From NCBI RefSeq assembly GCF_029227855.1, contig NZ_CP074356.1: a stretch of DNA of 64,000 bases; one strand, written 5' to 3'. The notes beneath the pieces were generated by a model. The model was given only the letters and a program-made list of their open reading frames with translations. It was not told the origin of the DNA and did not search any database. The position numbers and the translations under genes are program-made. Shown piece by piece: positions 11,156-64,000 of this stretch. The stretch comes from Escherichia coli. Its GTDB lineage: Bacteria; Pseudomonadota; Gammaproteobacteria; Enterobacterales; Enterobacteriaceae. Positions within the stretch are counted from its first letter, which is position 1. Every line of letters begins with the position of its first letter.

Positions 11156-11159
11156 CAAA

Positions 11160-11880: not shown

Positions 11881-11886
11881 AAAAAT

Positions 11887-13431: not shown

Positions 13432-13531
13432 TCGATTCAGTCTGTTGTTATTGTTGTGATTTATGAATCATAGCACAGGTCGTATCGACTTCTGGCCCTG
13501 GCGGTTTACCTCACCAGGGCCAGGCGACACG

Positions 13532-14845: not shown

Positions 14846-14871
14846 TGTAGGGTACTCGCAGGTTGATATGC

Positions 14872-17916: not shown

Positions 17917-17917
17917 G

Positions 17918-20540: not shown

Positions 20541-20547
20541 GGCATCC

Positions 20548-21045: not shown

Positions 21046-21059
21046 ACCCATCTCCTCTG

Positions 21060-21806: not shown

Positions 21807-21814
21807 TTCCGACC

Positions 21815-22102: not shown

Positions 22103-22113
22103 TTTGAAACTCC

Positions 22114-23043: not shown

Positions 23044-23327
23044 GTCATCACCTTTACGATTCCAGTTTTCATGATTTAATTAAAAACACGAATCACGTAT
23101 TTTTATGAAAGTTACACAATGGTTAACTAAAATCACAAATTTTGTATGTTTGAACTGTGACGAATTTCGCACCCTATTTTTATAAATCATTATTTATCAG
23201 TGCATTAATGTTTTTCGCAGTTGCTATACAGATCGCATAGTTAACATTTCGTTAAAAGACCACTTGCTTTTTATGATTCGCGATTTAACTATTAGCAACA
23301 GAAATGTGAAACATCTGGAGAGTAGCG
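23044..23327. promoter_or_regulatory. Divergent paaA / paaZ promoter region
   Basis: 284-bp AT-rich spacer between divergently transcribed paaA and paaZ; individual operator sites not mapped here. Confidence 0.5.
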
Positions 23328-25373: not shown

Positions 25374-25385
25374 TCGGTCAATGAA

Positions 25386-25415
25386 GGGCAACGGCGAATA
25401 GTTGCCCTTTTATTT
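25386..25415 (+). terminator. Rho-independent terminator after paaZ
   Basis: gggcaac-ggcgaatag-ttgccc followed by ttttattt. Confidence 0.6.
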
Positions 25416-25620
25416 CACCAAATTTTGTGACGTTGTCACATTATGCATGATGTGTATCTGTATTTTCAGGGCACTCACTGTATGAAAAGCTGGCACACCT
25501 GCCAAACAACCTGGCAGGTGCAGGCAATCCCCTTTACATCAGTACTGATAATGTGAACCTGACTAAACCGCCCACAGAGCGCGGTTGCTAACAAGAACAC
25601 AACATCTGACGAGGTTAATA

Positions 25621-27894: not shown

Positions 27895-27905
27895 TTGTTT
27901 CAGAC

Positions 27906-27935
27906 TAAAAAAACGGCACCAGGTGCCGTTTTTTA
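27906..27935. terminator. Bidirectional rho-independent terminator between convergent tynA and feaB
   Basis: aaaaaaa-cggcacc-a-ggtgccg-tttttt: perfect hairpin flanked by A-run and T-run. Confidence 0.75.
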
Positions 27936-27952
27936 CTTATGCGCGAATCAGA

Positions 27953-29452
27953 TTAATACCGTACACACACCGATTTAGTTTCACACCAACCGTCCAGCCA
28001 GTCCGGGCCAAAATCACGGCCTGTTCCTGACTGCTTCATCCCACCAAACGGTAAGTTAGCGTCAATTAAGGTATGACTGTTTACCCACACCGTACCAGCC
28101 TGTAAGCGATCGCTATATTCCAGAGCCCGGGAGAGATTTTGCGTCCAGACGCTGGCAGTTAAGCCATATTCCGTGTCGTTTGCCAGTTGTAACGCCTCTT
28201 CTCCGTCTGCTACTCGCACCAGGTTAACCACCGGACCAAACACCTCTTCACGAGTTAAGCGCAATTTAGCATCGGGATTTACCACCAGCGTTGGCGCAAC
28301 ATAATACCCCTCTCCGGCTGGTCCATTCGACCCGCGAATCAGCTCTGCTTGCTGTGCCTGCGCATCGTCAAGGAATGAACGCACTTTGTCGCAGTGCGCA
28401 CGAGAAACCAAAGGGTTAATCTGTGCAACAGGTGACATCCCCGGTCCCACTTGCAACGATTTTACCGCCTGCTCAAATCCACTAACCATCGTGTCAAACA
28501 ACGGCGCTTCAATATAAATTCGCGAACTGGCGGCGCATACTTGTCCCTGATTCAGGAAGCTTCCGGTCATCAAGCCTTCAATAACCCATTGCGGATCAGC
28601 ATCTTTTAATACAATTGCCGGGTTTTTACCGCCCAGTTCCAGCGTTACACGCGTTAAGCGATCAGCAGCAGTTCTGGCAATACCTTTTCCCGTCGCGGTT
28701 GAACCGGTAAAACTGATTTTCGCAACATGAGGATGTGACGTCAGGGCCGCGCCGCATACAGCACCGGCCCCGGTGACGACATTAAAAACGCCATCAGGGA
28801 TACCAGCCTCGCTGGCCAGTTCCGCCACGCGCAACATCGTCAGTGGCGTGGTTTCCGAAGGCTTAATCACGATTGAACAGCCTGCTGCCAGTGCTGGCAT
28901 CACCTTCCACATGCCAATCATCAACGGAAAGTTCCATGGCACAATTCCCGCTACCACGCCAACCGGCTCTTTACGCGTCCAGGCCTGATAACGCGCCCCC
29001 TGGGGTAAGGGAATCGACAAGTCCAGCGTTTTACCCGCGATTTTGGTCGTTAACCCGGCGGTATAACGCATCCAGTTCAGCGTACAGCCAACTTCAAAAG
29101 CACGGGAAATGGCAATTGACTTGCCTTGCTCCAGGGTTTCCAGTTGCGCCAGCTCCTCACTGTGCAGCTCAACCAGATCGGCAAAACGTAGCAGGATACG
29201 TTCACGCTCTGCAGGTAATCGCCCGGCCCAGCGACGCGAGACGAAGGCGCGCCATGCAGACATGACTGCGTTATCTACATCCGCTTCGTTGGCATCAGCA
29301 GTTGACGCAATTTCTTGCCCGGTTGCTGGATCAAAGATCGCTAACCGTTTTTCACTTTGTGCGGGGCCAGGACGACCATCAATATAAAGACCGTGTTGAC
29401 GATCGAGAAACTGTTGGACCTGGCTTAATACTGCTACATGCGGCTCTGTCAT
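27953..29452 (-). CDS. feaB: Phenylacetaldehyde dehydrogenase
   Basis: 499-aa aldehyde dehydrogenase (catalytic Cys region [10 protein letters not shown]; LELGGKNP). Confidence 0.92.
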
Positions 29453-29504
29453 CACTTTTCCTTATTATTTACCCAGTGTGATTTCAGTGTACGCAGCGAC
29501 AAGA

Positions 29505-29600
29505 AAAGTCACTTTTTTCGCTGTGACATTCGCTTTGTCAGCTGTGACAAGCTCCGCAAATCGTGACAATAACCGCTTATGTCTCTATGCCTGACAAGAC
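29505..29600. promoter_or_regulatory. Cluster of TGACA-N8-AAA-like direct repeats in the feaB / feaR divergent region (candidate FeaR sites)
   Basis: Repeated gTGACAa / cTGACAa elements at about 29521, 29541, 29561, 29590, several followed 8 nt later by AAA. Confidence 0.4.
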
Positions 29601-29687
29601 TTATTTCCTATAGTCAGGCTCATTAGCTTCGTTTATTGCAACACAAATGCAACAATAAAAATACATTTCACAGAGCGAAAACGTGCC

Positions 29688-30593
29688 ATGAACCCCGCAG
29701 TGGATAATGAGTTTCAGCAATGGCTTTCCCAAATCAATCAGGTATGCGGAAATTTTACCGGACGCCTGCTGACTGAGCGTTACACGGGTGTACTGGATAC
29801 GCATTTTGCCAAAGGACTAAAGCTGAGTACCGTGACAACCAACGGGGTGAATTTATCCCGCACCTGGCAGGAAATAAAAGGCAGCGACGATGCCTGGTTT
29901 TACACCGTTTTTCAGCTTAGTGGTCAGGCAATAATGGAGCAGGATGAGCGTCAGGTGCAGATTGGCGCTGGCGATATTACGTTACTCGATGCCTCACGCC
30001 CCTGTTCGCTTTACTGGCAGGAGTCTTCTAAACAGATTTCATTACTTTTACCACGCACTCTGCTGGAACAATATTTTCCCCATCAAAAACCTGTCTGCGC
30101 AGAAAGACTGGACGCTGACTTACCCATGGTGCAACTCAGTCATCGCCTGTTACAGGAGAGCATGAATAATCCGGCACTTTCTGAAACAGAAAGTGAAGCT
30201 GCGCTACAGGCGATGGTGTGTCTGCTTCGCCCAGTACTTCATCAGCGGGAATCTGTCCAACCTCGCCGTGAACGTCAGTTTCAAAAAGTGGTTACGTTGA
30301 TAGACGATAATATTCGCGAAGAGATATTACGCCCGGAGTGGATAGCCGGAGAGACAGGTATGTCAGTACGTAGTTTGTACCGAATGTTTGCCGATAAAGG
30401 TTTGGTGGTCGCGCAATATATTCGTAACCGTCGTCTCGATTTTTGTGCTGATGCGATTCGCCATGCCGCAGATGATGAAAAACTGGCAGGTATTGGCTTT
30501 CATTGGGGATTTTCCGATCAGAGTCATTTTTCAACGGTATTTAAGCAACGCTTTGGGATGACGCCAGGCGAGTATCGACGTAAATTCCGCTAA
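29688..30593 (+). CDS. feaR: AraC-family transcriptional activator of tynA and feaB
   Basis: 301-aa ORF with C-terminal AraC-type HTH. Confidence 0.9.
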   Translation: MNPAVDNEFQQWLSQINQVCGNFTGRLLTERYTGVLDTHFAKGLKLSTVTTNGVNLSRTWQEIKGSDDAWFYTVFQLSGQAIMEQDERQVQIGAGDITLLDASRPCSLYWQESSKQISLLLPRTLLEQYFPHQKPVCAERLDADLPMVQLSHRLLQESMNNPALSETESEAALQAMVCLLRPVLHQRESVQPRRERQFQKVVTLIDDNIREEILRPEWIAGETGMSVRSLYRMFADKGLVVAQYIRNRRLDFCADAIRHAADDEKLAGIGFHWGFSDQSHFSTVFKQRFGMTPGEYRRKFR

Positions 30594-30628
30594 CTAATTC
30601 GCGTTGCATGTACAGCAACGCGAATTAG
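30594..30628. other. 14-bp perfect inverted repeat directly after the feaR stop codon
   Basis: ctaattcgcgttgc-atgtaca-gcaacgcgaattag; no clear U-tract on either side. Confidence 0.5.
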
Positions 30629-30764
30629 TTAAAACAGATATTTGACTATGCATTTTTCAGGGCGAAAGGCAATTTGACAGGAATTTTTGAATATTCACCT
30701 TGTTTCCGGAAAATAGAATAATCGCCTTCTCCTGTAGCGTTATCCCGATATTGCGGTTTTGCTA

Positions 30765-31091
30765 TTAAAATTTTCGCACCCATTTACCGTTTATCCCTTG
30801 TACATATTCCCCCGGTTTAGCCCGAGCTACGAGCTTTTGCCCGGCGAGTTTCGCGATATCATCTACCGAGACATTATTTTGCTTTGCCAGTTGTTGGTAA
30901 CTCGCTTTACGTTCGGCATTAATGTCGTTTACTAATTTCTCTGTTTCAGCATCTGTTTTCAGCGCAACCAGATAACCATAAAATGTTTCCCCTACCCGCC
31001 CCTGAGTTCTGGCTTCATCCAGAGTCAATGCCATTACATTGCTGCTTACAAGCCCAACAAGAAACGCACAAAGAAGTAATGTTTTCTTCAT
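30765..31091 (-). CDS. ydbL: Periplasmic protein YdbL
   Basis: 108 aa from MKKTLLLCAFLVGLVSSNVMA (signal peptide); the track ORF is N-terminally extended. Confidence 0.85.
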   Translation of the reverse strand: MKKTLLLCAFLVGLVSSNVMALTLDEARTQGRVGETFYGYLVALKTDAETEKLVNDINAERKASYQQLAKQNNVSVDDIAKLAGQKLVARAKPGEYVQGINGKWVRKF

Positions 31092-31098
31092 CATCGCC

Positions 31099-31284
31099 TC
31101 AGAAAAGATCGCTACGAGTCTCAAGCAGCTCTTCGACATCTTTGTCTGCCTTGATGATGATCTCATGCTCAATTTTAACGTTCATATTGATAGTGATCGG
31201 TTCCTTAGGTGCAGCGACTTCAATGCGAGGCGTACAGCCAACCAGCATAAAAGATGACGTCAACGCAGCCAGTAAAATTTTCAT
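31099..31284 (-). CDS. ynbE: Small lipoprotein YnbE
   Basis: 61-aa ORF with lipobox MLVGC; start overlaps ydbH stop. Confidence 0.85.
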   Translation of the reverse strand: MKILLAALTSSFMLVGCTPRIEVAAPKEPITINMNVKIEHEIIIKADKDVEELLETRSDLF

Positions 31285-33920
31285 TGTTTTTCCTCACACT
31301 CTTTTCCTTGCGGACAGTCATTTCCCGGCAGACGTGCGTTCTGCTCCAACCATGCCTGGAGATTATCGCCAAAGCGTAAACTGCGCCACAGCGTAAAAAT
31401 ATTCTCTTCATGATGGTAATTAAGGTTTACCGTACCGCTTTTACCATCAACGCGACTGGTACCTGTAATGTTGGCCTGCATGGTTAATAAACCGAGATTA
31501 TCTAAATTAATATTTGTCGATGAACGGCTAATTTCCATATAGCGCAACCAGTTAATTGCTGAACCCGCAGTCATATTGTCTTTCACCACCGCATCTGCGG
31601 TGTCTTTATCCAGCCGCAAGGTCATTGGCCCGCTATTTGCCAGCCAGCCATCTTTCACTATCCATTTTTCGTTGTTTAGCCATAACGGCAATGCACCACT
31701 AAATGCCCCGGACATGGCGAATTGTTTCGGATTGACGGCGCTAACCAGTTCGCTGGATGAGAGATTATTCAGCCGCAACAGCGCCGGGTCATGTTGCGGC
31801 ATACGTAATTGTTTCATCAGCACGTTACCGCCTAACACATCGACGCTAACATCAGTCAACAACAATGGTTCTTCTTCTGTCCACGGATAGCGCCCTTGCA
31901 AATCAGCCGTAATATTTTTCGCTGTCACCAGATTAATCACTTCGGCAATTCGCAACGTAACGGGGCCGCGAGTCCCCAGATGCCAGGCTCCATCGGCAAA
32001 ACGGAAAGGCAGGACAAAATCGACACCGTTAACCTGATTATCTGGCATCCAGGCACTACCGCCTTTCAACACACCGTGCCCTCCCGCGCGGAATCCTTGT
32101 TCAGGCGCAGCAGAAAATGCGACCTGAGCATACAGTTCGCCATCGCGTAAGTTCATCTTCCAGTCGGGTGGCACCAGCGGCTGGAATACGGTCAGTGATT
32201 GTTTAGGCCACCAGGCGTTACCGCGCAGGCGAATACCGTCCCAGCGACCATTTACCCGAACCGGGCCAATCTCACCAGCATGTAAATCGCCTTTAAAGAG
32301 GAAATACGTCGGATCGCGCCCATCGACGCTAAATTTTAAGGTTGATGGCGGTAACACACTGCCGCCAGTGAACAGTGTTTGCCCGGCGTCCAGTGACAGC
32401 GCGCCGCTGAAGGAGGGATGCTGTGCGTCACGTCCCCAGACGACGGGCTTGTCGAGAATTAATCGCGGCTTTTCTACCGTCATCGTACCGTATTGTAACT
32501 GGTCGAAACCGGTGGAGAGATCGGTCAGCGTAATCGTGCTGTCATGCCACTCACCCTTTCCTGCGACATCCCAGGTGGCATTCATCGGTGTAAAACTGCC
32601 TTTTCCCCAGTAGCGCCACTGCCAGCGGCCAGCGTCAGGGAGAAAATCATTCGCCAGTCCATCCATATGCAGCACGAAATCGCCCAGTTCATTTTCATGC
32701 GCCTGCAAAATGGCCTGCAAACGTCCGTCAACACCACGTTGGGTGACTTTTACACCCGCTAAAGGCCAGCGGATTTCATCGATGTCCAGCGAATCGATGA
32801 CTCTTCCCTTCGAACGTAATAACGCACCTGGCTCAAAGGCCAACGTTGGGTCAGTCAGACTTCCGCTTAGCTGCGCAGGTAAACGGGCATATAAAATGAG
32901 GTCCGCCTGTTTCGCTTCACCGGTCAGTTGCAGAGGCAGCTGGCTGTTATCCATGCTTAATTTTCCTGGGCCAAAATTAAGCACCGCGTTGCCCTTACCC
33001 GCTTGCCCCTGGGTCAGCACACTCAGTCGTCCGCTGACCAGAGCGTTCTCAAGCCCTGCCTGCCAGTTGTCGACTTTAACACCCAGTCGGCCACTCAAAG
33101 GAAAACCTGCATACGGCCAGCTCCAGCGACCATCGCTTACGGTCAATTGTTGGCGAGTAATTTGCCACGGCAAATCGAGCAACGGATCGCCGTTATCCCG
33201 TGCCAGCACAATCAATTGCCCGCTATTTTCCTGCCAGTCCAGCTCGGCATCCACCAGTGAAGGCTCCTGCGGCAAGTTTAACGTCGCAGTAGCATGACCA
33301 CTTACAGGAAGTCCATCCGGCACGAGCGGCATAGTAAATTCCCCCACCAGTTTTACCGGTGGCTGATTTTCAAACGCGGCGACATCCAGTTCGCTGACTG
33401 TAAGTTGTTGCCCTTTAAGCTGGCCTTGAAATTTAACTTTTTCGCCCTGATAACGCAGTTGCTGGATATCAGAGGTTAACGCGAGAGAGAGTTTTCCCTG
33501 CCACTCCTGCCAGGGAGAAAAAATCAGTTTATCGATATTGATCCAGGTGTTAGGCAACATGGCCTGCCACTGCGCGAGGGTTTTTGGAGCGGCAGGCGAT
33601 TGCTCCGTCTGCGGCAATTTCGCCAGACAAGCAGAATCAAGTTCTACCGTGCCGACGTTCAATAACCAGCGGCTCGGATGTGAAAGGCTGGCGTTGGTGA
33701 TATGCGCAAGCTGACAATCTCCCACCAGATAACGGAGATCGGGAATGATTAAACCTTTACGCGTAATACGTGGGCTTTCATCTAATGCAATACGTGTCCC
33801 GAGCGGTAGCCAGATGCCCGCCAGCGTGGGAACCCACAAGCCGAGCGTCATCAGCAGCGTCAACGGCACAAGAATAATCAGTAATAACAGCGCGAGAACG
33901 GCTTTATATTTACCCAGCAT
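31281..33920 (-). CDS. ydbH: AsmA-like large envelope protein YdbH
   Basis: 879-aa ORF with N-terminal membrane anchor (MLGKYKAVLALLLLIILVPLTLLMTLGLWVP). Confidence 0.88.
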   Translation of the reverse strand: MLGKYKAVLALLLLIILVPLTLLMTLGLWVPTLAGIWLPLGTRIALDESPRITRKGLIIPDLRYLVGDCQLAHITNASLSHPSRWLLNVGTVELDSACLAKLPQTEQSPAAPKTLAQWQAMLPNTWINIDKLIFSPWQEWQGKLSLALTSDIQQLRYQGEKVKFQGQLKGQQLTVSELDVAAFENQPPVKLVGEFTMPLVPDGLPVSGHATATLNLPQEPSLVDAELDWQENSGQLIVLARDNGDPLLDLPWQITRQQLTVSDGRWSWPYAGFPLSGRLGVKVDNWQAGLENALVSGRLSVLTQGQAGKGNAVLNFGPGKLSMDNSQLPLQLTGEAKQADLILYARLPAQLSGSLTDPTLAFEPGALLRSKGRVIDSLDIDEIRWPLAGVKVTQRGVDGRLQAILQAHENELGDFVLHMDGLANDFLPDAGRWQWRYWGKGSFTPMNATWDVAGKGEWHDSTITLTDLSTGFDQLQYGTMTVEKPRLILDKPVVWGRDAQHPSFSGALSLDAGQTLFTGGSVLPPSTLKFSVDGRDPTYFLFKGDLHAGEIGPVRVNGRWDGIRLRGNAWWPKQSLTVFQPLVPPDWKMNLRDGELYAQVAFSAAPEQGFRAGGHGVLKGGSAWMPDNQVNGVDFVLPFRFADGAWHLGTRGPVTLRIAEVINLVTAKNITADLQGRYPWTEEEPLLLTDVSVDVLGGNVLMKQLRMPQHDPALLRLNNLSSSELVSAVNPKQFAMSGAFSGALPLWLNNEKWIVKDGWLANSGPMTLRLDKDTADAVVKDNMTAGSAINWLRYMEISRSSTNINLDNLGLLTMQANITGTSRVDGKSGTVNLNYHHEENIFTLWRSLRFGDNLQAWLEQNARLPGNDCPQGKECEEKQ

Positions 33921-34127
33921 GGGTAGTTAATATCCTGATTTAGCGAAAAATTAAGCATTCAATACGGGTATTGTGGCATGTTTAACCGTTCAGTTGAAGG
34001 TTGCGCCTACACTAAGCATAGTTGTTGATGAATTTTTCAATATCGCCATAGCTTTCAATTATATTTGAAATTTTGTAAAATATTTTTAGTAGCTTAAATG
34101 TGATTCAACATCACTGGAGAAAGTCTT

Positions 34128-35117
34128 ATGAAACTCGCCGTTTATAGCACAAAACAGTACGACAAGAAGTACCTGCAACAGGTGAACGAGTCCTTTGGCT
34201 TTGAGCTGGAATTTTTTGACTTTCTGCTGACGGAAAAAACCGCTAAAACTGCCAATGGCTGCGAAGCGGTATGTATTTTCGTAAACGATGACGGCAGCCG
34301 CCCGGTGCTGGAAGAGCTGAAAAAGCACGGCGTTAAATATATCGCCCTGCGCTGTGCCGGTTTTAATAACGTCGACCTTGACGCGGCAAAAGAACTGGGG
34401 CTGAAAGTAGTCCGTGTTCCAGCCTATGATCCAGAAGCCGTTGCTGAACACGCCATCGGTATGATGATGACGCTGAACCGCCGTATTCATCGCGCATATC
34501 AGCGTACTCGTGACGCCAACTTCTCTTTGGAAGGTCTGACCGGCTTTACTATGTATGGCAAAACGGCAGGCGTTATCGGTACCGGTAAAATCGGTGTGGC
34601 GATGCTGCGCATTCTGAAAGGTTTTGGTATGCGTCTGCTGGCGTTCGATCCGTATCCAAGTGCGGCGGCGCTGGAACTCGGTGTGGAGTATGTCGATCTG
34701 CCAACCCTGTTCTCTGAATCAGACGTTATCTCTCTGCACTGCCCGCTGACACCGGAAAACTACCATCTGTTGAACGAAGCCGCCTTCGATCAGATGAAAA
34801 ATGGCGTGATGATCGTCAATACCAGTCGCGGTGCATTGATTGATTCTCAGGCGGCAATTGAAGCGCTGAAAAATCAGAAAATTGGTTCGTTGGGTATGGA
34901 CGTGTATGAGAACGAACGCGATCTGTTCTTTGAAGACAAATCCAACGACGTGATCCAGGATGACGTATTCCGTCGTCTGTCTGCCTGCCACAACGTGCTG
35001 TTTACCGGGCACCAGGCATTCCTGACAGCAGAAGCACTGACCAGTATTTCTCAGACTACGCTGCAAAACTTAAGCAATCTGGAAAAAGGCGAAACCTGCC
35101 CGAACGAACTGGTTTAA
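34128..35117 (+). CDS. ldhA: Fermentative D-lactate dehydrogenase (NAD-dependent)
   Basis: 329-aa D-isomer 2-hydroxyacid dehydrogenase with GVIGTGKIG NAD-binding motif. Confidence 0.93.
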   Translation: MKLAVYSTKQYDKKYLQQVNESFGFELEFFDFLLTEKTAKTANGCEAVCIFVNDDGSRPVLEELKKHGVKYIALRCAGFNNVDLDAAKELGLKVVRVPAYDPEAVAEHAIGMMMTLNRRIHRAYQRTRDANFSLEGLTGFTMYGKTAGVIGTGKIGVAMLRILKGFGMRLLAFDPYPSAAALELGVEYVDLPTLFSESDVISLHCPLTPENYHLLNEAAFDQMKNGVMIVNTSRGALIDSQAAIEALKNQKIGSLGMDVYENERDLFFEDKSNDVIQDDVFRRLSACHNVLFTGHQAFLTAEALTSISQTTLQNLSNLEKGETCPNELV

Positions 35118-35227
35118 TCTTGCCGCTCCCCTGCATTCCAGGGGAGCTGATTCAGATAATCCCCAATGACCTTTCATCCTCTATTCTTAAAATAGTCCTG
35201 AGTCAGAAACTGTAATTGAGAACCACA

Positions 35228-35650
35228 ATGAAGAAAGTAGCCGCGTTTGTTGCGCTAAGCCTGCTGATGGCGGGATGTGTAAGTAATGACAAAATTGCTG
35301 TAACCCCAGAACAGCTACAGCATCATCGCTTTGTGCTGGAAAGCGTAAACGGTAAGCCCGTGACCAGCGATAAAAATCCGCCAGAAATCAGCTTTGGTGA
35401 AAAGATGATGATTTCCGGCAGCATGTGTAACCGCTTTAGCGGTGAAGGCAAACTGTCTAATGGTGAACTGATAGCCAAAGGGCTGGCAATGACCCGTATG
35501 ATGTGCGCTAACCCGCAGCTTAATGAACTCGATAACACCATTAGCGAAATGCTGAAAGAAGGTGCACAAGTGGATCTGACCGCGAACCAGTTAACGCTGG
35601 CGACCGCGAAACAGACATTAACTTATAAGCTGGCGGATTTAATGAATTAA
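35228..35650 (+). CDS. hslJ: Heat-shock lipoprotein HslJ
   Basis: 140 aa from MKKVAAFVALSLLMAGC (lipobox). Confidence 0.88.
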   Translation: MKKVAAFVALSLLMAGCVSNDKIAVTPEQLQHHRFVLESVNGKPVTSDKNPPEISFGEKMMISGSMCNRFSGEGKLSNGELIAKGLAMTRMMCANPQLNELDNTISEMLKEGAQVDLTANQLTLATAKQTLTYKLADLMN

Positions 35651-35913
35651 TAGCTGCCACAGCTCCCGGCGGCAAGTGACTGTTCACTACAGCGTTTGCC
35701 GTTGGGTAATGCACACATCCCAATCGCCGTACCATCCAGTTGACGGGCAACAGAAAGCGAACCGCCGATCATTGCACAATTTGCTTCTCCACTACTGGAC
35801 ATCGACGCTTTTAAACCTGGCGCTACGTGCGCCGCAGTCGCCTGCTGAACAGGTTCACTACTACACGCCGACAATAATAAAGCGGCACACCCTACCCAAA
35901 ACGCTGCTCGCAT
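35647..35913 (-). CDS. ydbJ: Small lipoprotein YdbJ
   Basis: 88-aa ORF with lipobox LLSAC. Confidence 0.8.
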   Translation of the reverse strand: MRAAFWVGCAALLLSACSSEPVQQATAAHVAPGLKASMSSSGEANCAMIGGSLSVARQLDGTAIGMCALPNGKRCSEQSLAAGSCGSY

Positions 35914-36186
35914 CTTTTCTTCCTCTGATCTTCAAGCCAAACGACACCGCCATAAATAATAGGCAGCACAGAGGGCGGCGTCGAGAGCTATCCTGCGCGT
36001 TGCCCCGCATTTTTACTTTTTTATGGCTATTTTTTTGCCCTCTGTTTGATCAAAACATTCATTACGCTGATGAGGGGGACACAAAAGCGAAAATGCAGAA
36101 GAAAGCCATTTGCTAAAATTGAAGGATTACTACTGGGCGCGCAGCAATTTCGTGCGCCCCTCATTTGCGCAATGTAAGGGTGTCAT

Positions 36187-39100
36187 ATGATTACTATTGA
36201 CGGTAATGGCGCGGTTGCTTCGGTGGCGTTTCGCACCAGTGAAGTTATCGCCATCTACCCTATTACCCCCAGTTCCACGATGGCAGAACAGGCTGATGCC
36301 TGGGCCGGAAACGGCTTGAAGAACGTTTGGGGAGACACACCACGCGTGGTTGAAATGCAGTCGGAAGCGGGTGCTATCGCTACCGTGCATGGCGCTTTGC
36401 AGACGGGTGCCCTTTCAACATCGTTTACGTCATCGCAGGGTTTGCTGCTGATGATCCCGACGCTGTACAAACTGGCAGGCGAACTCACACCGTTTGTCCT
36501 GCATGTAGCGGCACGTACCGTTGCCACACATGCACTCTCTATTTTTGGCGATCATTCCGACGTCATGGCGGTGCGCCAGACGGGTTGCGCGATGTTGTGT
36601 GCGGCAAACGTCCAGGAAGCGCAAGACTTTGCTCTCATTTCGCACATCGCGACGCTGAAAAGCCGCGTGCCATTTATTCATTTCTTTGATGGTTTCCGCA
36701 CGTCCCACGAAATCAATAAAATTGTCCCGTTGGCCGATGACACGATTCTTGAACTGATGCCGCAGGCCGAAATTGATGCTCATCGCGCCCGGGCGCTCAA
36801 CCCGGAACATCCGGTGATCCGCGGTACGTCCGCCAATCCTGACACTTATTTCCAGTCTCGCGAAGCCACCAACCCCTGGTACAACGCGGTCTATGACCAT
36901 GTTGAACAGGCGATGAATGATTTCGCTGCCGCGACAGGTCGTCAGTATCAGCCGTTTGAGTATTACGGGCATCCGCAAGCGGAACGGGTGATTATCCTGA
37001 TGGGCTCTGCCATTGGCACATGTGAAGAAGTGGTTGATGAATTGCTGACCCGTGGCGAAAAAGTCGGCGTGCTGAAAGTTCGCCTGTACCGCCCCTTCTC
37101 CGCCAAACACTTGCTGCAAGCTCTGCCGGGATCCGTGCGCAACGTGGCGGTACTGGACAGAACCAAAGAACCCGGTGCCCAGGCAGAACCGCTCTATCTG
37201 GATGTGATGACTGCACTGGCAGAAGCCTTTAATAATGGCGAGCGCGAAACCCTGCCCCGTGTCATTGGTGGGCGCTATGGTCTTTCATCCAAAGAATTTG
37301 GCCCGGACTGTGTACTGGCGGTATTTGCCGAGCTCAACGCGGCTAAACCGAAAGCGCGCTTTACGGTTGGTATTTACGATGATGTGACCAATCTGTCACT
37401 GCCGTTGCCGGAAAACACCCTGCCAAACTCGGCGAAACTGGAAGCCTTGTTTTATGGCCTTGGTAGTGATGGCAGCGTTTCCGCGACCAAAAACAATATC
37501 AAGATTATCGGTAATTCCACGCCGTGGTACGCACAGGGCTATTTTGTTTACGACTCCAAAAAGGCGGGCGGCCTGACAGTTTCTCACCTTCGCGTGAGCG
37601 AACAGCCGATTCGTTCCGCTTATCTCATTTCCCAGGCTGATTTTGTTGGCTGCCACCAGTTGCAGTTTATCGACAAATATCAGATGGTTGAGCGTTTAAA
37701 ACCTGGCGGCATTTTCCTGCTCAACACGCCGTACAGCGCAGATGAAGTGTGGTCGCGCTTGCCGCAGGAAGTTCAGGCCGTGCTAAACCAGAAAACAGCG
37801 CGCTTCTATGTGATTAACGCAGCGAAAATCGCCCGCGAATGTGGCCTGGCGGCCCGTATTAATACCGTCATGCAGATGGCTTTTTTCCATCTGACGCAAA
37901 TTCTGCCTGGCGATAGCGCCCTCGCAGAATTGCAGGGTGCGATTGCCAAAAGTTACAGTAGCAAAGGTCAGGATCTGGTGGAGCGCAACTGGCAGGCTCT
38001 GGCGCTGGCGCGTGAATCCGTAGAAGAAGTTCCGTTGCAGCCGGTTAATCCGCACAGCGCCAATCGACCGCCTGTGGTTTCCGATGCCGCTCCTGATTTC
38101 GTGAAAACCGTTACCGCGGCGATGCTCGCCGGGCTTGGTGATGCCCTCCCCGTTTCGGCGCTGCCGCCAGACGGCACCTGGCCGATGGGCACCACGCGCT
38201 GGGAAAAACGCAATATCGCCGAAGAGATCCCCATCTGGAAAGAGGAACTCTGTACCCAATGTAACCACTGCGTCGCCGCTTGCCCACACTCAGCTATTCG
38301 CGCAAAAGTGGTACCGCCTGAAGCGATGGAAAACGCCCCTGCCAGCCTGCATTCGCTGGATGTGAAATCGCGTGATATGCGCGGGCAGAAATATGTCTTG
38401 CAGGTGGCACCGGAAGATTGCACCGGCTGTAACCTGTGCGTCGAAGTTTGCCCGGCGAAAGACCGTCAGAATCCAGAGATTAAAGCCATCAATATGATGT
38501 CGCGCCTGGAACATGTCGAAGAAGAAAAAATCAATTACGATTTCTTCCTCAACCTGCCAGAAATCGACCGTAGCAAACTGGAACGTATTGATATTCGTAC
38601 ATCGCAGCTGATTACACCGCTGTTTGAATATTCCGGTGCTTGCTCCGGTTGTGGCGAGACGCCGTATATTAAATTGCTGACTCAGCTCTATGGCGACCGG
38701 ATGTTGATCGCTAACGCCACCGGCTGTTCTTCAATTTATGGCGGTAACCTGCCCTCTACACCGTATACTACCGATGCCAACGGTCGTGGACCGGCATGGG
38801 CGAACTCGCTGTTTGAAGATAACGCCGAATTTGGCCTTGGTTTCCGCCTGACAGTCGATCAACACCGTGTCCGCGTGCTGCGTCTGCTGGATCAATTTGC
38901 CGATAAAATCCCGGCGGAATTACTGACTGCGTTGAAATCAGACGCCACGCCAGAGGTTCGTCGAGAACAGGTCGCAGCTTTACGCCAGCAACTCAACGAT
39001 GTTGCCGAAGCACATGAACTGATGCGTGACGCAGATGCACTGGTGGAAAAATCAATCTGGCTGATTGGTGGCGACGGCTGGGCTTACGATATCGGCTTTG

Positions 39101-39711
39101 GCGGTCTGGATCATGTATTGAGTTTGACGGAAAACGTCAACATTCTGGTGCTGGATACGCAATGCTATTCCAATACCGGTGGTCAGGCGTCAAAAGCGAC
39201 ACCGCTGGGTGCAGTAACTAAGTTTGGCGAGCACGGCAAACGTAAAGCGCGTAAAGATCTTGGCGTCAGTATGATGATGTACGGCCATGTTTATGTGGCG
39301 CAGATTTCTCTCGGCGCGCAGCTGAACCAGACGGTGAAAGCAATTCAGGAAGCGGAAGCGTATCCGGGACCATCGCTGATCATCGCTTATAGCCCGTGTG
39401 AAGAGCATGGTTACGATCTGGCTCTCAGCCACGACCAGATGCGCCAACTCACTGCTACCGGCTTCTGGCCGCTATATCGCTTCGATCCTCGTCGTGCCGA
39501 TGAAGGCAAACTGCCGCTGGCGCTGGATTCACGCCCGCCGTCAGAAGCACTGGAAGAAACGTTACTTCATGAGCAGCGTTTCCGTCGTCTGAATTCGCAG
39601 CAGCCAGAAGTGGCAGAACAGTTATGGAAAGATGCTGCAGCTGATTTGCAAAAACGCTATGACTTCCTGGCACAAATGGCCGGAAAAGCGGAAAAAAGCA
39701 ACACCGATTAA
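36187..39711 (+). CDS. ydbK: Pyruvate:flavodoxin/ferredoxin oxidoreductase
   Basis: 1174-aa ORF with two 4Fe-4S ferredoxin motifs (CTQCNHCVAACP, CTGCNLCVEVCP) and TPP-binding region. Confidence 0.92.
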   Translation: MITIDGNGAVASVAFRTSEVIAIYPITPSSTMAEQADAWAGNGLKNVWGDTPRVVEMQSEAGAIATVHGALQTGALSTSFTSSQGLLLMIPTLYKLAGELTPFVLHVAARTVATHALSIFGDHSDVMAVRQTGCAMLCAANVQEAQDFALISHIATLKSRVPFIHFFDGFRTSHEINKIVPLADDTILELMPQAEIDAHRARALNPEHPVIRGTSANPDTYFQSREATNPWYNAVYDHVEQAMNDFAAATGRQYQPFEYYGHPQAERVIILMGSAIGTCEEVVDELLTRGEKVGVLKVRLYRPFSAKHLLQALPGSVRNVAVLDRTKEPGAQAEPLYLDVMTALAEAFNNGERETLPRVIGGRYGLSSKEFGPDCVLAVFAELNAAKPKARFTVGIYDDVTNLSLPLPENTLPNSAKLEALFYGLGSDGSVSATKNNIKIIGNSTPWYAQGYFVYDSKKAGGLTVSHLRVSEQPIRSAYLISQADFVGCHQLQFIDKYQMVERLKPGGIFLLNTPYSADEVWSRLPQEVQAVLNQKTARFYVINAAKIARECGLAARINTVMQMAFFHLTQILPGDSALAELQGAIAKSYSSKGQDLVERNWQALALARESVEEVPLQPVNPHSANRPPVVSDAAPDFVKTVTAAMLAGLGDALPVSALPPDGTWPMGTTRWEKRNIAEEIPIWKEELCTQCNHCVAACPHSAIRAKVVPPEAMENAPASLHSLDVKSRDMRGQKYVLQVAPEDCTGCNLCVEVCPAKDRQNPEIKAINMMSRLEHVEEEKINYDFFLNLPEIDRSKLERIDIRTSQLITPLFEYSGACSGCGETPYIKLLTQLYGDRMLIANATGCSSIYGGNLPSTPYTTDANGRGPAWANSLFEDNAEFGLGFRLTVDQHRVRVLRLLDQFADKIPAELLTALKSDATPEVRREQVAALRQQLNDVAEAHELMRDADALVEKSIWLIGGDGWAYDIGFGGLDHVLSLTENVNILVLDTQCYSNTGGQASKATPLGAVTKFGEHGKRKARKDLGVSMMMYGHVYVAQISLGAQLNQTVKAIQEAEAYPGPSLIIAYSPCEEHGYDLALSHDQMRQLTATGFWPLYRFDPRRADEGKLPLALDSRPPSEALEETLLHEQRFRRLNSQQPEVAEQLWKDAAADLQKRYDFLAQMAGKAEKSNTD

Positions 39712-39738
39712 ATGCACTGGATAAGGATTATCCAATTC

Positions 39739-39844
39739 TAAAAAAAAGCCCGGACGACTGTTCGGGCTTGTCTCATTATTTGTTGGATAAACAGTAACAA
39801 GGGTCCAACAGAAAATAATCTTTGTGACAATAAAGGCATATAAC
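39739..39844 (-). ncRNA. micC: MicC small regulatory RNA
   Basis: Minus strand reads GTTATATGCCTTTATTGTCACA... ending in hairpin gcccgaacagtcgtccgggc plus U-tract; divergent from ompN; recognised from memory. Confidence 0.65.
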
Positions 39845-40072
39845 CCGCGAAGAATAACGCATCACTATTTAAATGTATAATTTTTATTTTGTATATGTCG
39901 CCAACAATATATTCACCAAACTTATCATCATTTCCGTAGAATTATTTGATTAAGGTTTTACTTAAGGCGTAACAAATGATATTTATCGGCTAACGGAACT
40001 TCTCCTTTAGGATGTTTTCACTCCCCAAAATGGGGATGAAAAGGCAAATAAAATAACTAAAGGATTTATTCA

Positions 40073-41191
40073 ATGAAAAGCAAAGTACTGGCATTTTTAA
40101 TTCCTGCCCTGCTCGCCGCAGGTGCTGCACATGCAGCCGAAGTTTATAATAAAGACGGCAACAAATTAGATCTGTATGGCAAAGTTGATGGCCTACATTA
40201 TTTTTCTGATAATACCAATAGTGATGGTGATCAAACTTATGTGCGTTTTGGTTTTAAGGGTGAAACGCAAATCACGGATCAACTGGTTGGGTATGGCCAG
40301 TGGGAATATAACGTGCAGGCTAATGGCTCTGAAGGTGATAAAGGTGATTCCTGGACTCGTCTTGCTTTTGCCGGTCTGAAATTTGGTGACCTGGGTTCAT
40401 TCGACTATGGTCGTAATTATGGCGTAATGTACGACATCGAAGGCTGGACCGATATGCTACCGGAATTCGGTGGTGACTCTTATACCAAAGCCGATAACTA
40501 TATGACCGGTCGAGCCAATGGCGTAGCAACCTATCGTAATACTGATTTCTTCGGTCTGGTTGATGGTCTGAATTTTGCGTTACAGTACCAGGGTGCGAAT
40601 GAAAACCAGGTCACCCATGAGCAAGAAGGTACCGCAAACGGTGGTGATCGAAACATTAAGAACGCCAATGGCGACGGTCTTGGCATCTCTACTACCTACG
40701 ACTTAGGTATGGGCATGAGTTTTGGTGCCGCCTATACCAGTTCCGATCGCACTAACCAGCAGGCTGAATTCTCTACCGCAAAAGGCGATAAGGCTGATGC
40801 CTGGACTGCCGGGGCAAAATACGATGCTAACAATATCTACCTGGCGACCATGTATTCTGAAACGCGTAACATGACACCTTACGGTGATTCAACAAATACG
40901 ATTGCCAACAAAACCCAGAACTTTGAAGTTACTGCGCAGTATCAGTTCGATTTTGGGCTGCGTCCGGCAGTCTCTTTCCTGATGTCTAAAGGCAAGGATT
41001 TGGTCGGTACCGACGGTGATAAAGATCTGGTTAAATACGCCGATGTTGGCGCGACTTACTATTTCAACAAAAATATGTCCACCTACGTTGACTATAAAAT
41101 CAACCTGTTGGATGAAGATGACAGCTTCTACGCTGCCAATGGCATCTCTACCGATGATATTGTCGCTTTAGGTCTGGTTTATCAGTTCTAA
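40073..41191 (+). CDS. ompN: Outer-membrane general porin OmpN
   Basis: 372-aa ORF with signal peptide, porin beta-barrel signature and C-terminal YQF. Confidence 0.9.
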
Positions 41192-41198
41192 ATCCTCC

Positions 41199-41226
41199 TG
41201 CCCGCTGTTATGGCGGGCTTTTTCTG
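41199..41226 (+). terminator. Rho-independent terminator after ompN
   Basis: cccgc-tgttatg-gcggg followed by cttttttc. Confidence 0.65.
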
Positions 41227-41250
41227 CTTATTCTTCCTCCTTTGATCTAA

Positions 41251-41766
<516 letters not shown>

Positions 41767-41773
41767 CACTAAC

Positions 41774-41799
41774 GCCCGCACATTGCTGCGGGCTTTTTG
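41774..41799 (+). terminator. Rho-independent terminator after uspF
   Basis: gcccgca-cattgc-tgcgggc followed by ttttt. Confidence 0.65.
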
Positions 41800-41941
41800 A
41801 TTCATTTCGCAAATGTGCTGACATTTTCCCCTCTAATCCGTACCATACACGCCACAGTTTTTATATCAGATTTCTTATGCTGGGCGTTCCGGCATGACGC
41901 ATACTCTTCTGATGCCATATAACGAATTGAGTCGCTTTTAA

Positions 41942-59800: not shown

Positions 59801-60700
59801 CTAAACAGCACCTTTATACTTCAGCCTATCTATAAATAATGAGAATGCCGAGCCAGCATGTCGACGGTGTGGATAGTACAGGTGATAACCGGGTAAATCT
59901 GGTGTGAATTTATCCAAAACACGTATCAGTTTTTTTTCTTTAATAGCCCGCTCAACCTGATCATAAGGTAGATACGCCAATCCATGCCCATCAATTGCAG
60001 CATCAATGATCAGGTCTATCGTATTCAGTAAAAGCTGACCTTCCATGCGAACACGAACTTCACGTCCACCGCGTATTAATCTCCAGCGATTTGCTGTACC
60101 CGATGTGGGAAGATACAAATTAATTGCCTGATGATCTATTAATTGTGACACTGACGTTGGAGCACTTCGACGAGAAAAATAATCCGGTGAACCAACAATA
60201 GCCATTGGTATATCTGGCCCGATTCGAATGGCGATCATATCTTTATCCATCTCCCCACCCAGACGGACGCCTGCATCAAAACGTTCAGAAACGACATCGG
60301 TCAAACCATAATCAATGGTAAGCTGGATATCAATTTCAGGATGCGATTTCAGGAATGTGCGCATAGCTGGTAACAATATCGTTTTTGCTGCATGTTCTAC
60401 AGTAGTAATACGTATTGTCCCGGATGGGCGGTTCTGCAGATCGCTCAGGGATGTCAGGGCAGAATCTATGTCATGCAACATAGGGCCAAGAACAGACAAA
60501 AGATGCTCGCCCGCTTCAGTGGGTACAACGCTGCGCGTGGTTCGCGTCAGAAGCCGCAATCCCAATCGTTCTTCTATACGGCGCACTATCTGGCTTAAAG
60601 CTGACTGCGCCATGCTCAGGCGGGCTGCTGCGCGAGTGAAGCTACGCTCCTCTGCAACGACGACAAACGCCATCAGATCAGCGATTTCTTCACGCTTCAT
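59801..60700 (-). CDS. pgrR: LysR-family regulator of murein peptide degradation
   Basis: 299-aa ORF with N-terminal LysR HTH; divergent from ycjY. Confidence 0.88.
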   Translation of the reverse strand: MKREEIADLMAFVVVAEERSFTRAAARLSMAQSALSQIVRRIEERLGLRLLTRTTRSVVPTEAGEHLLSVLGPMLHDIDSALTSLSDLQNRPSGTIRITTVEHAAKTILLPAMRTFLKSHPEIDIQLTIDYGLTDVVSERFDAGVRLGGEMDKDMIAIRIGPDIPMAIVGSPDYFSRRSAPTSVSQLIDHQAINLYLPTSGTANRWRLIRGGREVRVRMEGQLLLNTIDLIIDAAIDGHGLAYLPYDQVERAIKEKKLIRVLDKFTPDLPGYHLYYPHRRHAGSAFSLFIDRLKYKGAV

Positions 60701-60724
60701 TCAGTATCTCCATACAATCTATTA

Positions 60725-60738
60725 ATCATTTAAATGAT
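60725..60738. promoter_or_regulatory. Perfect 14-bp palindrome ATCATTTAAATGAT in the pgrR / ycjY divergent promoter region (candidate LysR-type operator)
   Basis: Palindrome of LysR T-N11-A type 25-40 bp upstream of the pgrR start; direct repeat GGTCTAATCA x2 immediately adjacent. Confidence 0.4.
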
Positions 60739-60837
60739 AGGTCTAATCATAATTTAGGGTCTAATCAACTTAATGATCAATATCTATAGTGATATCACCA
60801 ACCGCCAAAACGAACCGACAACTCCATGAGGAACGGA

Positions 60838-61758
60838 ATGATGAATAATAAAGTCAGCTTCACTAACAGCAATAATCCAACCATCTCTTTGTCTGCAGTG
60901 ATCTATTTCCCTCCAAAATTTGATGAAACCCGTCAGTATCCGGCAATTGTGGTATCTCACCCAGGTGGGGGCGTTAAAGAGCAAACGGCCGGAACCTATG
61001 CCGAAAAACTGGCGGAAAAGGGATTTGTCACTATTGCTTATGACGCATCTTATCAAGGTGAAAGCGGCGGCGAGCCGCGTCAGTTAGAAAACCCATACAT
61101 TCGTACTGAAGACGTCAGTGCCGTGATTGATTACCTGACAACGCTTTCTTATGTCGACAATACCCGAATTGGTGCGATGGGAATTTGTGCCGGTGCAGGA
61201 TATACAGCCAATGCTGCAATTCAGGATCGCCGCATCAAGGCCATCGGTACTGTTAGTGCGGTCAATATTGGTTCGATGTTCCGTAATGGTTGGGAAAACA
61301 ATGTGAAATCTATTGATGCCCTACCATACGTTGACGCGGGTTCAAACGCCCGAACCAGCGATATTAGTAGCGGAGAATACGCCACTATGCCACTGGCACC
61401 AATGAAGGAGTCCGATGCGCCGAACGAAGAACTGCGTCAGGCCTGGGAGTATTACCACACCCCTCGCGCGCAGTATCCAACAGCACCGGGTTACGCTACT
61501 TTGCGCAGCCTTAACCAGATTATTACCTATGATGCTTACCATATGGCGGAAGTGTACCTGACTCAGCCGATACAGATTGTGGCGGGCAGCCAGGCAGGGA
61601 GCAAATGGATGAGTGACGACCTGTACGATCGAGCATCAAGCCAGGATAAACGCTATCACATTGTTGAAGGCGCAAACCATATGGATCTTTATGACGGCAA
61701 AGTCTATGTGGCTGAAGCAATTTCAGTATTAGCTCCGTTCTTTGAGGAAACTCTGTAA
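60838..61758 (+). CDS. ycjY: Alpha/beta-hydrolase (dienelactone hydrolase-like) protein
   Basis: ORF 60826-61758 (310 aa); start at MMNNKVSFTNS chosen to give about 306 aa, uncertain by a few codons. Confidence 0.85.
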   Translation: MMNNKVSFTNSNNPTISLSAVIYFPPKFDETRQYPAIVVSHPGGGVKEQTAGTYAEKLAEKGFVTIAYDASYQGESGGEPRQLENPYIRTEDVSAVIDYLTTLSYVDNTRIGAMGICAGAGYTANAAIQDRRIKAIGTVSAVNIGSMFRNGWENNVKSIDALPYVDAGSNARTSDISSGEYATMPLAPMKESDAPNEELRQAWEYYHTPRAQYPTAPGYATLRSLNQIITYDAYHMAEVYLTQPIQIVAGSQAGSKWMSDDLYDRASSQDKRYHIVEGANHMDLYDGKVYVAEAISVLAPFFEETL

Positions 61759-61828
61759 TGAAACATATTCAAATCCGTAATAGTGATATGGCCTGGCATA
61801 TTGCTGCCAATAATCTGGGAAAAGTTTC

Positions 61829-62467
61829 ATGAAAAATGTACTGATTCTTGGTGCTGGCGGTCAGATAGCCCGCCATGTGATTAATCAACTGGCAGATAAA
61901 CAAACCATTAAACAAACTTTATTTGCCCGTCAGCCAGCAAAAATCCACAAACCCTATCCCACTAATAGCAAGATTATTATGGGGGATGTACTGAATCATG
62001 CAGCACTGAAGCAGGCCATGCAGGGACAGGATGTTGTGTATGCCAACCTTACGGGGGAAGATTTAGATATTCAGGCAAATTCAGTGATCGCTGCGATGAA
62101 AGCCTGTGATGTTAAACGTCTGATCTTTGTTCTTTCCCTCGGTATTTATGATGAAGTTCCAGGAAAATTTGGCGAATGGAATAATGCAGTTATTGGTGAG
62201 CCCCTAAAACCATTCCGCAGGGCTGCGGATGCAATTGAGGCTTCTGGACTGGAATATACAATTCTTCGCCCTGCCTGGCTGACTGATGAAGATATTATTG
62301 ATTATGAGCTTACCTCACGCAATGAACCATTCAAAGGTACGATCGTATCACGTAAGAGTGTCGCAGCATTAATCACAGATATCATCGATAAACCTGAGAA
62401 ACACATTGGTGAGAATATAGGCATCAATCAACCCGGGACTGATGGTGATAAGCCCTTCTTCATGTAA
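61829..62467 (+). CDS. NAD(P)-binding Rossmann-fold protein (NmrA/atypical SDR-like), intact 212 aa
   Basis: MKNVLILGAGGQIARHV (GxGxxG/A NAD-binding motif); lies between ycjY and mpaA where K-12 is annotated with ymjC/ymjD fragments (from memory). Confidence 0.8.
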   Translation: MKNVLILGAGGQIARHVINQLADKQTIKQTLFARQPAKIHKPYPTNSKIIMGDVLNHAALKQAMQGQDVVYANLTGEDLDIQANSVIAAMKACDVKRLIFVLSLGIYDEVPGKFGEWNNAVIGEPLKPFRRAADAIEASGLEYTILRPAWLTDEDIIDYELTSRNEPFKGTIVSRKSVAALITDIIDKPEKHIGENIGINQPGTDGDKPFFM

Positions 62468-62632
62468 ATCAATTATATAGCTACCATCGTACTGTACTAT
62501 GTGCAGTACGATTTATTAAACTTATTAAGGTGAACTGATCAATCAGATGCGATTAACATGTGTAGAACCAGTAAGAATAAAATACGCCATGTATATAACA
62601 TTACGACAATTCTAATATCTGCACATCAATGA

Positions 62633-62662
62633 AAATGCAAACAACTTCCGGCAAAAAAGTGA
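62633..62662. repeat. 30-bp motif, copy 2 (aaatgcaaacaacttccggcaaaaaagtga), about 100 bp upstream of mpaA
   Basis: 28 of 30 identical to copy 1 at 59522-59551. Confidence 0.7.
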
Positions 62663-62757
62663 TACAAGATAGATGACATAGCGTTGAAGAAAAGGATTTG
62701 ATAATCCGCAAAATTTGCACAACACTGCCTGTAATACTTCCTGAACCAGAGACGATC

Positions 62758-63486
62758 ATGACCGTAACTCGCCCACGCGCCGAACGCGGCGCATTTCCGC
62801 CCGGAACAGAACATTACGGACGTTCATTATTGGGCGCGCCGTTAATCTGGTTTCCTGCCCCTGCAGCCAGCCGCGAAAGTGGTTTGATTCTGGCTGGCAC
62901 TCACGGTGATGAAAACTCTTCGGTCGTCACGCTCTCCTGTGCTCTGCGAACGTTGACACCTCCTTTGCGCCGTCATCATGTGGTGCTGTGTGTGAATCCT
63001 GACGGCTGCCAGTTGGGGTTACGGGCCAATGCTAATGGTGTGGATTTAAACAGAAACTTTCCGGCGGCGAACTGGAAGGAAGGTGAAACCGTTTATCGCT
63101 GGAACAGCGCCGCTGAAGAACGTGATGTCGTATTGCTGACAGGTGACAAACCTGGCTCCGAACCTGAAACCCAGGCGCTGTGCCAGCTTATACACCGCAT
63201 TCAACCTGCCTGGGTGGTCTCATTCCACGATCCGCTGGCCTGTATTGAAGATCCCAGACACAGCGAATTAGGCGAATGGCTGGCCCAGGCGTTTGAATTG
63301 CCTCTGGTAACCAGCGTCGGTTATGAAACACCTGGCTCTTTCGGTAGTTGGTGTGCAGATCTCAACTTGCATTGCATCACCGCAGAGTTTCCACCCATCT
63401 CCTCCGACGAAGCCAGCGAAAAATATCTCTTTGCGATGGCAAACTTGCTGCGCTGGCATCCTAAAGATGCAATTCGCCCGTCGTGA
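62758..63486 (+). CDS. mpaA: Murein peptide amidase A (gamma-D-Glu-meso-DAP amidase, M14 family)
   Basis: 242 aa from MTVTRPRAERGAFPPG; zinc carboxypeptidase-like HGDE motif (GTHGDENSS). Confidence 0.88.
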   Translation: MTVTRPRAERGAFPPGTEHYGRSLLGAPLIWFPAPAASRESGLILAGTHGDENSSVVTLSCALRTLTPPLRRHHVVLCVNPDGCQLGLRANANGVDLNRNFPAANWKEGETVYRWNSAAEERDVVLLTGDKPGSEPETQALCQLIHRIQPAWVVSFHDPLACIEDPRHSELGEWLAQAFELPLVTSVGYETPGSFGSWCADLNLHCITAEFPPISSDEASEKYLFAMANLLRWHPKDAIRPS

Positions 63487-64000
63487 ACTGAAGCGCCGGT
63501 TCCACATCTACCGCCAGCCATGTCGGTCCGTCAAGATCGGCGAAACTGACCTGCGGCACCAGCGGTAAAGCGGCGCTAATGGCCCGAGAGGTACACAACA
63601 TGCAGCCCAGCATCAGACGAAAACCTTGTGCACGCGCTTCAGTCGCCAGCGCCAGCGCTTCCGTCAGACCACCGGTTTTATCAAGCTTAATGTTAACCAT
63701 CTCATAGCGCCCTTTCAGCGCCTTAAGATTGCTACGAGTATGACAACTTTCATCAGCACAAATCGGTAACGGATGAATAAAATTCTCCAGCGCCGCATCG
63801 TCCTGCGCAGGAAGCGGTTGTTCAAGCATCGCAACGCCTAAATCTGCCAATAGCTGGCAACGCGCCGCCAACCCTTCTGCACGCCAGGATTCATTTGCAT
63901 CAACGATCAGCGTCGCATCGGGCACAGCTGTGCGAATTGCCACCATCCGCTCACTGATAAGATGGTTATCCAGCTTCACTTTCAGTAATTTCGCGCCTGC
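63461..64000 (-). CDS. ycjG: L-Ala-D/L-Glu epimerase (enolase superfamily), C-terminal part; gene continues beyond window end
   Basis: Open minus-strand frame from the window edge reading ...AGAKLLKVKLDNHLISERMVAIRTAV...FTTGELHL; 26-bp convergent overlap with mpaA. Confidence 0.85.
   Translation of the reverse strand, partial: AGAKLLKVKLDNHLISERMVAIRTAVPDATLIVDANESWRAEGLAARCQLLADLGVAMLEQPLPAQDDAALENFIHPLPICADESCHTRSNLKALKGRYEMVNIKLDKTGGLTEALALATEARAQGFRLMLGCMLCTSRAISAALPLVPQVSFADLDGPTWLAVDVEPALQFTTGELHL

Follow-up and report, generated by a model that had tools for sequence, protein, structure and literature searches.

The convergent genes mpaA and ycjG of Escherichia coli share the last 26 bp of their coding sequences, and this overlap is very probably an ordinary tail-to-tail arrangement of two genuine genes, a neutral by-product of stop codon drift that is functionless in itself. 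The junction lies in a window of 64,000 nt (the whole stretch of DNA analysed), which contains all of mpaA and the 3' part of ycjG. The features at the junction are as follows:

62758..63486, + strand: mpaA coding sequence, murein tripeptide amidase, 242 aa (open reading frame from the ATG at 62758, NCBIfam, RefSeq)
63461..64000, − strand: ycjG coding sequence, 3' 540 bp, L-Ala-D/L-Glu epimerase (open reading frame, NCBIfam)
63461..63486, both strands: shared coding stretch of 26 bp (sequence, codon-position map)
63461..63463, − strand: ycjG stop codon TAG (CTA on the + strand), with the putative site of a 1-nt deletion between 63462 and 63463
63463..63483, + strand: frameshifted MpaA tail, residues K236-S242 (KDAIRPS), which takes the place of a probable ancestral Q-R end
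63484-63486, + strand: mpaA stop codon TGA, the complement of the YcjG Phe314-Thr315 codons (TTC ACG)

Both genes have been characterised experimentally. MpaA matched the NCBIfam equivalog NF007897 over residues 1-236 with 478 bits (cut-off of 157), and the C-terminal 172 residues of YcjG matched the equivalog NF011708 at profile positions 150-321 of 321 with 373 bits (cut-off of 343). Structures have been solved for both proteins (PDB 5HXD for MpaA and PDB 1JPD for YcjG). The initial annotation, made from the sequence alone, had named the two genes, placed their stop codons and given the length of the overlap; the names agreed with the equivalog matches and with RefSeq in strains JNEC-KY178 and K-12 MG1655, and both stops and the 26-bp length were confirmed by the sequence and the list of open reading frames. 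The pair thus comprises two genuine protein genes on opposite strands, according to NCBIfam, the structures and RefSeq, and either stop codon falls within the reading frame of the partner. The codon phase is (123:132): position 1 of the mpaA codons faces position 1 of the ycjG codons, position 2 faces position 3, and position 3 faces position 2. In the window, mpaA is the final gene of the co-directional ycjY-SDR-mpaA block, and ycjG extends past the window end. The complete ycjG sequence, of 966 bp and 321 aa, is found in a record that is 100% identical, the JNEC-KY178 locus (L001), where RefSeq annotates the identical 26-bp overlap (mpaA, 4159..4887, +; ycjG, 4862..5827, −).

The same overlap is present in K-12 MG1655, where ycjG (b1325) occupies 1388930..1389895 and mpaA (b1326) occupies 1389870..1390598, and RefSeq annotates 26 bp in two sequence-variant E. 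coli strains as well. None of the RefSeq records inspected has an annotation that removes the overlap; all keep both stops. The region was found in 5413 of 5426 complete E. coli genomes.

To place the junction among relatives, a one-genome-per-species scan was performed with an MpaA alignment, followed by tblastn and a search for the stop codons. This yielded 31 convergent mpaA/ycjG loci. The coding sequences overlapped in 26 of them, by 4, 10, 19, 21, 26 or 29 bp:

26-bp overlap, 5 loci: E. coli (2), E. albertii and two Citrobacter; MpaA of 242 aa, YcjG of 321 aa
26-bp overlap of independent origin, 2 loci: Pantoea (L024, L027); MpaA of 235 aa, YcjG of 327 aa
10-bp overlap, 12 loci: Enterobacter, Kluyvera, Pseudocitrobacter, Superficieibacter, Pseudescherichia and others; MpaA of 237-239 aa
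4-bp overlap, 5 loci: Pluralibacter, Serratia, two Yersinia and Mangrovibacter
19-, 21- and 29-bp overlaps: 1 locus each
Gaps of 3, 9, 36, 72 and 160 bp: 1 locus each, the 160-bp gap being that of Vibrio

Among the loci examined, the 26-bp form with an MpaA of 242 aa is confined to Escherichia and Citrobacter. The Pantoea overlap of the same length has the opposite construction, combining a short MpaA with a six-residue C-terminal extension of YcjG. The order mppA / mpaA / ycjG / tpx / tyrR was kept across the Enterobacterales loci compared. Judged from these comparisons, the close abutment of mpaA and ycjG is ancient, and the length and phase of the overlap drift.

Two other arrangements were also observed. 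In Pectobacterium (L023 and L028; ~3194..3776), ycjG is absent and tpx lies ~80 bp downstream of mpaA on the same strand, the order that would be expected if ycjG had been removed from between co-oriented genes. In E. coli O157:H7 PV15-279 (L087, 1521..3066), an IS66-family (ISEc8) insertion cuts ycjG to its last 303 bp, leaving a pseudogene; mpaA and the 26-bp junction are unaltered.

Alignment of 20 Enterobacteriaceae loci indicated how the 26-bp form may have arisen. In most Enterobacteriaceae, the genes share a 10-bp overlap with the sequence TCAAAGATGA, with 237 codons in mpaA and 321 in ycjG. The Escherichia/Citrobacter junction corresponds to this 10-bp form minus one base, a single C (GATCCTCAAAGATGAAGC versus CATCCT-AAAGATGCAAT). 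The junction codons of mpaA read TGG GAT CCT CAA AGA TGA AGC in one locus with the 10-bp form (L013) and TGG CAT CCT AAA GAT GCA ATT CGC CCG TCG TGA in E. coli. On the mpaA strand, CCT-C-AAA becomes CCT-AAA and the frame shifts after Pro235, two codons ahead of the old TGA, which is still there, out of frame, in C. werkmanii. On the ycjG strand, CTT TGA GG becomes CTT TAG G, and the YcjG terminus, ...LHL, is unmoved. Because the 4- and 10-bp forms have the same phase and are found in deeper lineages, we infer that the 26-bp form is derived and that the 10- or 4-bp form is ancestral; the direction and nature of the indel were assigned by parsimony over a modest, unrooted sample.

Together, these data are consistent with a history in which the stop positions of an anciently abutting convergent pair drifted, producing an overlap that would be functionless in itself. 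The loss of one base at the ycjG stop (TGAGG to TAGG) would have occurred in the lineage of Escherichia and Citrobacter. Such a deletion would spare the end of YcjG, give MpaA seven new codons in place of two and lengthen the overlap to 26 bp. The new mpaA stop would then be held in place by selection on YcjG, being the complement of the conserved Phe314-Thr315 codons. In Citrobacter, where the Phe-Thr codons are TTT ACG, the mpaA stop is TAA. In a published survey, mutation of the stop codon was the best-fitting model for the origin of convergent overlaps (PMC2174442).

The two proteins differ in how tightly their shared ends are conserved. The C-terminus of MpaA past the conserved LLRW is very variable in length and sequence. 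Residues 237-242 lie outside the NCBIfam profile match, and the chain of E. coli MpaA in PDB 5HXD comprises residues 1-237, with residues 238-242 missing. Within Escherichia and Citrobacter, the tail occurs as AIRPS, AMRPS, AIRPL, AILRS, GAARS and EAVRS. The end of YcjG, for its part, matches the final profile position (321), and PDB 1JPD covers residues 1-321. In all Escherichia and Citrobacter sequences examined, YcjG ends in FTTG[E/Q]LHL, with the exception of one E. coli strain that carries E318A. Most substitutions in the overlap fall at third positions of ycjG codons, which are second positions of mpaA codons and are silent for YcjG; the resulting changes in MpaA include S242L in strain 50579417, and R240L and P241R in E. 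albertii. Because the conservation is one-sided, with YcjG fixed and the MpaA tail variable, the shared stretch appears to evolve as ycjG sequence, with the MpaA tail as a passenger. Selection on the shared stretch would accordingly act through YcjG, and the tail is probably dispensable for the enzymatic function of MpaA.

We also examined how transcription might end at this junction. Since the mRNA of either gene has to include the stop codon of that gene, the transcripts of the two genes, where both are produced, overlap over 26 nt or more. The earlier statement that 3' transcript overlap is unavoidable thus holds, intergenic DNA being absent, and it agrees with published transcript data (PMC12288877). 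The initial annotation had further concluded that the pair leaves no room for a terminator. This was sustained to the extent that there is no intergenic DNA and no terminator was detected; the lack of intergenic DNA does not by itself exclude terminators within the opposite coding sequence, and a terminator embedded in that position is present in ~20% of the E. coli genes that take part in convergent overlaps (PMC2174442). A consensus scan detected no terminator-like sites in 62500..64000. In the JNEC-KY178 locus (2100..6600), the same type of scan yielded five terminator-like sites overall as compared to a shuffle mean of 4.5, and no intrinsic terminator-like site past either stop on the relevant strand. 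When the 120 nt downstream of each stop were folded, the z-scores were -2.06 and -1.04, and no hairpin followed by a U-tract was found. Similarly, the mpaA/ycjG gene ends contained no bidirectional intrinsic terminator of the type formed by a GC-rich hairpin with A-/U-tracts. An Rfam scan of 62400..64000 returned nothing significant, its one match being at chance level (E = 0.79) and located upstream, at 62687-62870. The spacers of the relatives with a 72-bp or 160-bp gap were without terminator-like sites, which gives no indication that an intergenic terminator was once present and then lost. We also observed a palindrome, GCATCCTAAAGATGC, at 63456-63470 that spans the ycjG stop. On either strand it folds into a hairpin of 5-6 bp, which lacks a U-tract and is not statistically supported.

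With neither intergenic DNA nor an intrinsic terminator, each mRNA is expected to run into the opposite gene. One further feature bears on where the mpaA transcript might end:

63578..63986, + strand: RNA antisense to ycjG beyond the mpaA stop, rich in C and poor in G (78-nt windows mostly with a C/G ratio of 1.1-1.9)

This RNA is a plausible candidate for a Rho-loading region once translation ends, and its composition would favour Rho termination over read-through toward tpx. Transcription would then end by the action of Rho or by polymerase collision within the opposite gene. A literature search for mpaA together with antisense or Rho-dependent termination returned nothing specific to this locus.

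Published transcriptome data include the pair. ExcludonFinder, an RNA-seq meta-analysis (2025), lists ycjG-mpaA among 165 convergent overlapping-transcript pairs of MG1655, defined by overlap in at least 50% of 58 strand-specific RNA-seq samples of that strain (PMC12288877). In the same work, tpx-ycjG is a divergent excludon and mpaA-ycjG-tpx is one of three 'noncontiguous operons' of MG1655 (Table 1 of PMC12288877). Double-stranded RNase III products captured with p19 span the entire tpx gene and possibly derive from a tyrR-ycjG read-through transcript (PMC7373196). Finally, the PgrR regulon is reported to include mpaA, as ycjY-ymjDC-mpaA, and ycjG (PMC5934670).

These data raise the question of whether selection instead maintains the overlap within an antisense regulatory unit, a convergent 'excludon' that couples or counter-balances two consecutive steps in the breakdown of murein tripeptide. 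Its means would be an obligatory 3' transcript overlap accompanied by transcriptional interference or by RNase III cleavage of the duplex, and it might sit in interleaved units on opposite strands, ycjY-mpaA-[ycjG]-tpx and tyrR-[tpx]-ycjG. We consider this unlikely. The two excludon calls and the noncontiguous operon are in its favour, as are the RNase III products over the neighbouring tpx, the lack of a terminator separating mpaA and ycjG, and the conservation across Enterobacterales of the gene order and of near-zero spacing between the two genes. However, the length and phase of the overlap are not conserved (4-29 bp, with small gaps in some loci), and the published dsRNA cluster, S-116, covers tpx and not the mpaA/ycjG junction (PMC7373196). 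Moreover, the coverage threshold behind the excludon call is scaled to the expression of the individual gene, which is probably low. Both enzymes act in one pathway and both genes are in the reported PgrR regulon, so mutual exclusion would bring no obvious benefit.

The persistence of the abutment in 26 of 31 loci could nevertheless mean that the missing spacer or terminator is itself selected, beyond being merely tolerated. In a broader version, which we judge slightly less probable again, this selection would extend across Enterobacterales and maintain two interleaved, strand-opposed units, with duplexes or collisions setting the output of the recycling steps and of thiol peroxidase. The composition that these units would need to have, ycjY-mpaA running through antisense ycjG into tpx, and tyrR running through antisense tpx into ycjG, is just as doubtful. 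The remaining alternative, that the overlap is an artefact of annotation or sequencing and one frame truly ends earlier, is extremely improbable. The sole hint of it is that residue 237 is the last one in the 5HXD chain and in most orthologues. Against this, the 3' ends are set by the first in-frame stop, which involves no annotation judgement, and an in-frame stop at codon 238 occurs in no Escherichia or Citrobacter sequence examined. In addition, of 5412 E. coli genomes, 4471 carry an identical 66-mer centred on the overlap, and both stops are retained in those variants that were inspected. With stops that are unambiguous and conserved, an annotation artefact was rejected as effectively refuted. 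Drift of the stop codons of two genuine genes thus remains the preferred reading.

Convergent coding overlaps are not rare: Lillo & Krakauer (2007) counted 58 in E. coli (PMC2174442) and Huvet & Stumpf (2014) counted 75 (PMC4161906). According to the annotation of the matching record, three of the eight convergent pairs in the window overlap; besides mpaA/ycjG, these are:

24039..24073: 35-bp convergent overlap of a hypothetical gene with a YdfR-family gene (Rac-like prophage)
34681..34684: 4-bp convergent overlap of ydaF with sieB (Rac-like prophage)

The ydaF/sieB pair is likewise on the published excludon list (PMC12288877). The phase (123:132) is the commonest among convergent overlaps of at least 5 nt, accounting for 49% of them (PMC2174442). 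The mpaA/ycjG overlap is no more than chance would give, and the arrangement is an ordinary one.

The Rac-like prophage itself occupies 1..41890, about two thirds of the length of the window, and contains genes for tail, capsid, terminase and lysis functions together with racR, recET and intR. An IS110-family element sits within the group of tail genes at ~2902..3921, and the prophage also has trkG as cargo.

The neighbourhood upstream of mpaA also differs between E. coli and its relatives. Among the loci compared (L003-L031), a pgrR-ycjY-SDR block (59801..62467 in the window) lies between mppA and mpaA in E. coli only. In E. albertii, Citrobacter, Enterobacter, Serratia, Yersinia and others, the start of mppA is ~180 bp upstream of mpaA and the two genes are divergent. 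It therefore seems that mpaA became the final gene of the ycjY operon, which PgrR controls, through an insertion of ~3.3 kb specific to E. coli. Within this block, a gene for an SDR-family oxidoreductase is intact in the window (61829..62467, +; 212 aa). Four other E. coli records, from strains other than K-12, also have this gene annotated, cut at the locus edge in three of them; K-12 MG1655 has just the fragments ymjC and ymjD annotated over the corresponding stretch.

The overlap has long been present in the K-12 reference annotation and the transcript overlap has been catalogued, so the finding matters little in itself. With the coding overlap and the transcript overlap already on record, the proposed origin by a one-base deletion is a small new detail. 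It provides a tidy, textbook-style case of how a convergent overlap can grow, by the deletion of one base at a shared stop that leaves one of the proteins intact. The arrangement has a practical consequence: deleting or tagging the 3' end of mpaA or ycjG alters the partner, and a scar at the C-terminus of MpaA changes the conserved last residues of YcjG.

Three types of known system resemble the junction to different degrees. At bidirectional terminators (SEnd-seq, Ju et al. 2019), as outlined at second hand in bioRxiv 10.1101/2022.10.23.513370, both directions of transcription are stopped over the same DNA, as they would be at mpaA/ycjG, and head-on polymerase collision is a possible contributor there too. 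In that outline, bidirectional terminators lie between genes and a stem-loop positions the collision, whereas mpaA and ycjG have no DNA between them, and neither a significant hairpin nor a terminator-like element was found at their junction. The convergent excludons (PMC12288877) are a closer match: mpaA/ycjG is itself listed and shares their typically short, and here negative, intergenic distance. In classical excludons, the overlap lies in untranslated regions and expression is reciprocal; by contrast, the mpaA/ycjG overlap takes in coding sequence, and the pair is known as an overlapping-transcript pair whose products belong to the same pathway and whose genes belong to the same reported regulon. 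The closest resemblance is to the surveyed convergent overlaps of prokaryotes (PMC2174442, PMC4161906), in which opposite-strand 3' coding ends are likewise shared over a short distance. The phase (123:132) and an origin by stop movement match those described (PMC2174442), and ~80% of the E. coli genes in such overlaps are, like mpaA and ycjG, without a rho-independent terminator (PMC2174442). The pair would differ from these in that its stop was moved by a 1-nt deletion that spared the partner's stop, and not by a point mutation of the stop codon; in all else that is essential, it resembles them.
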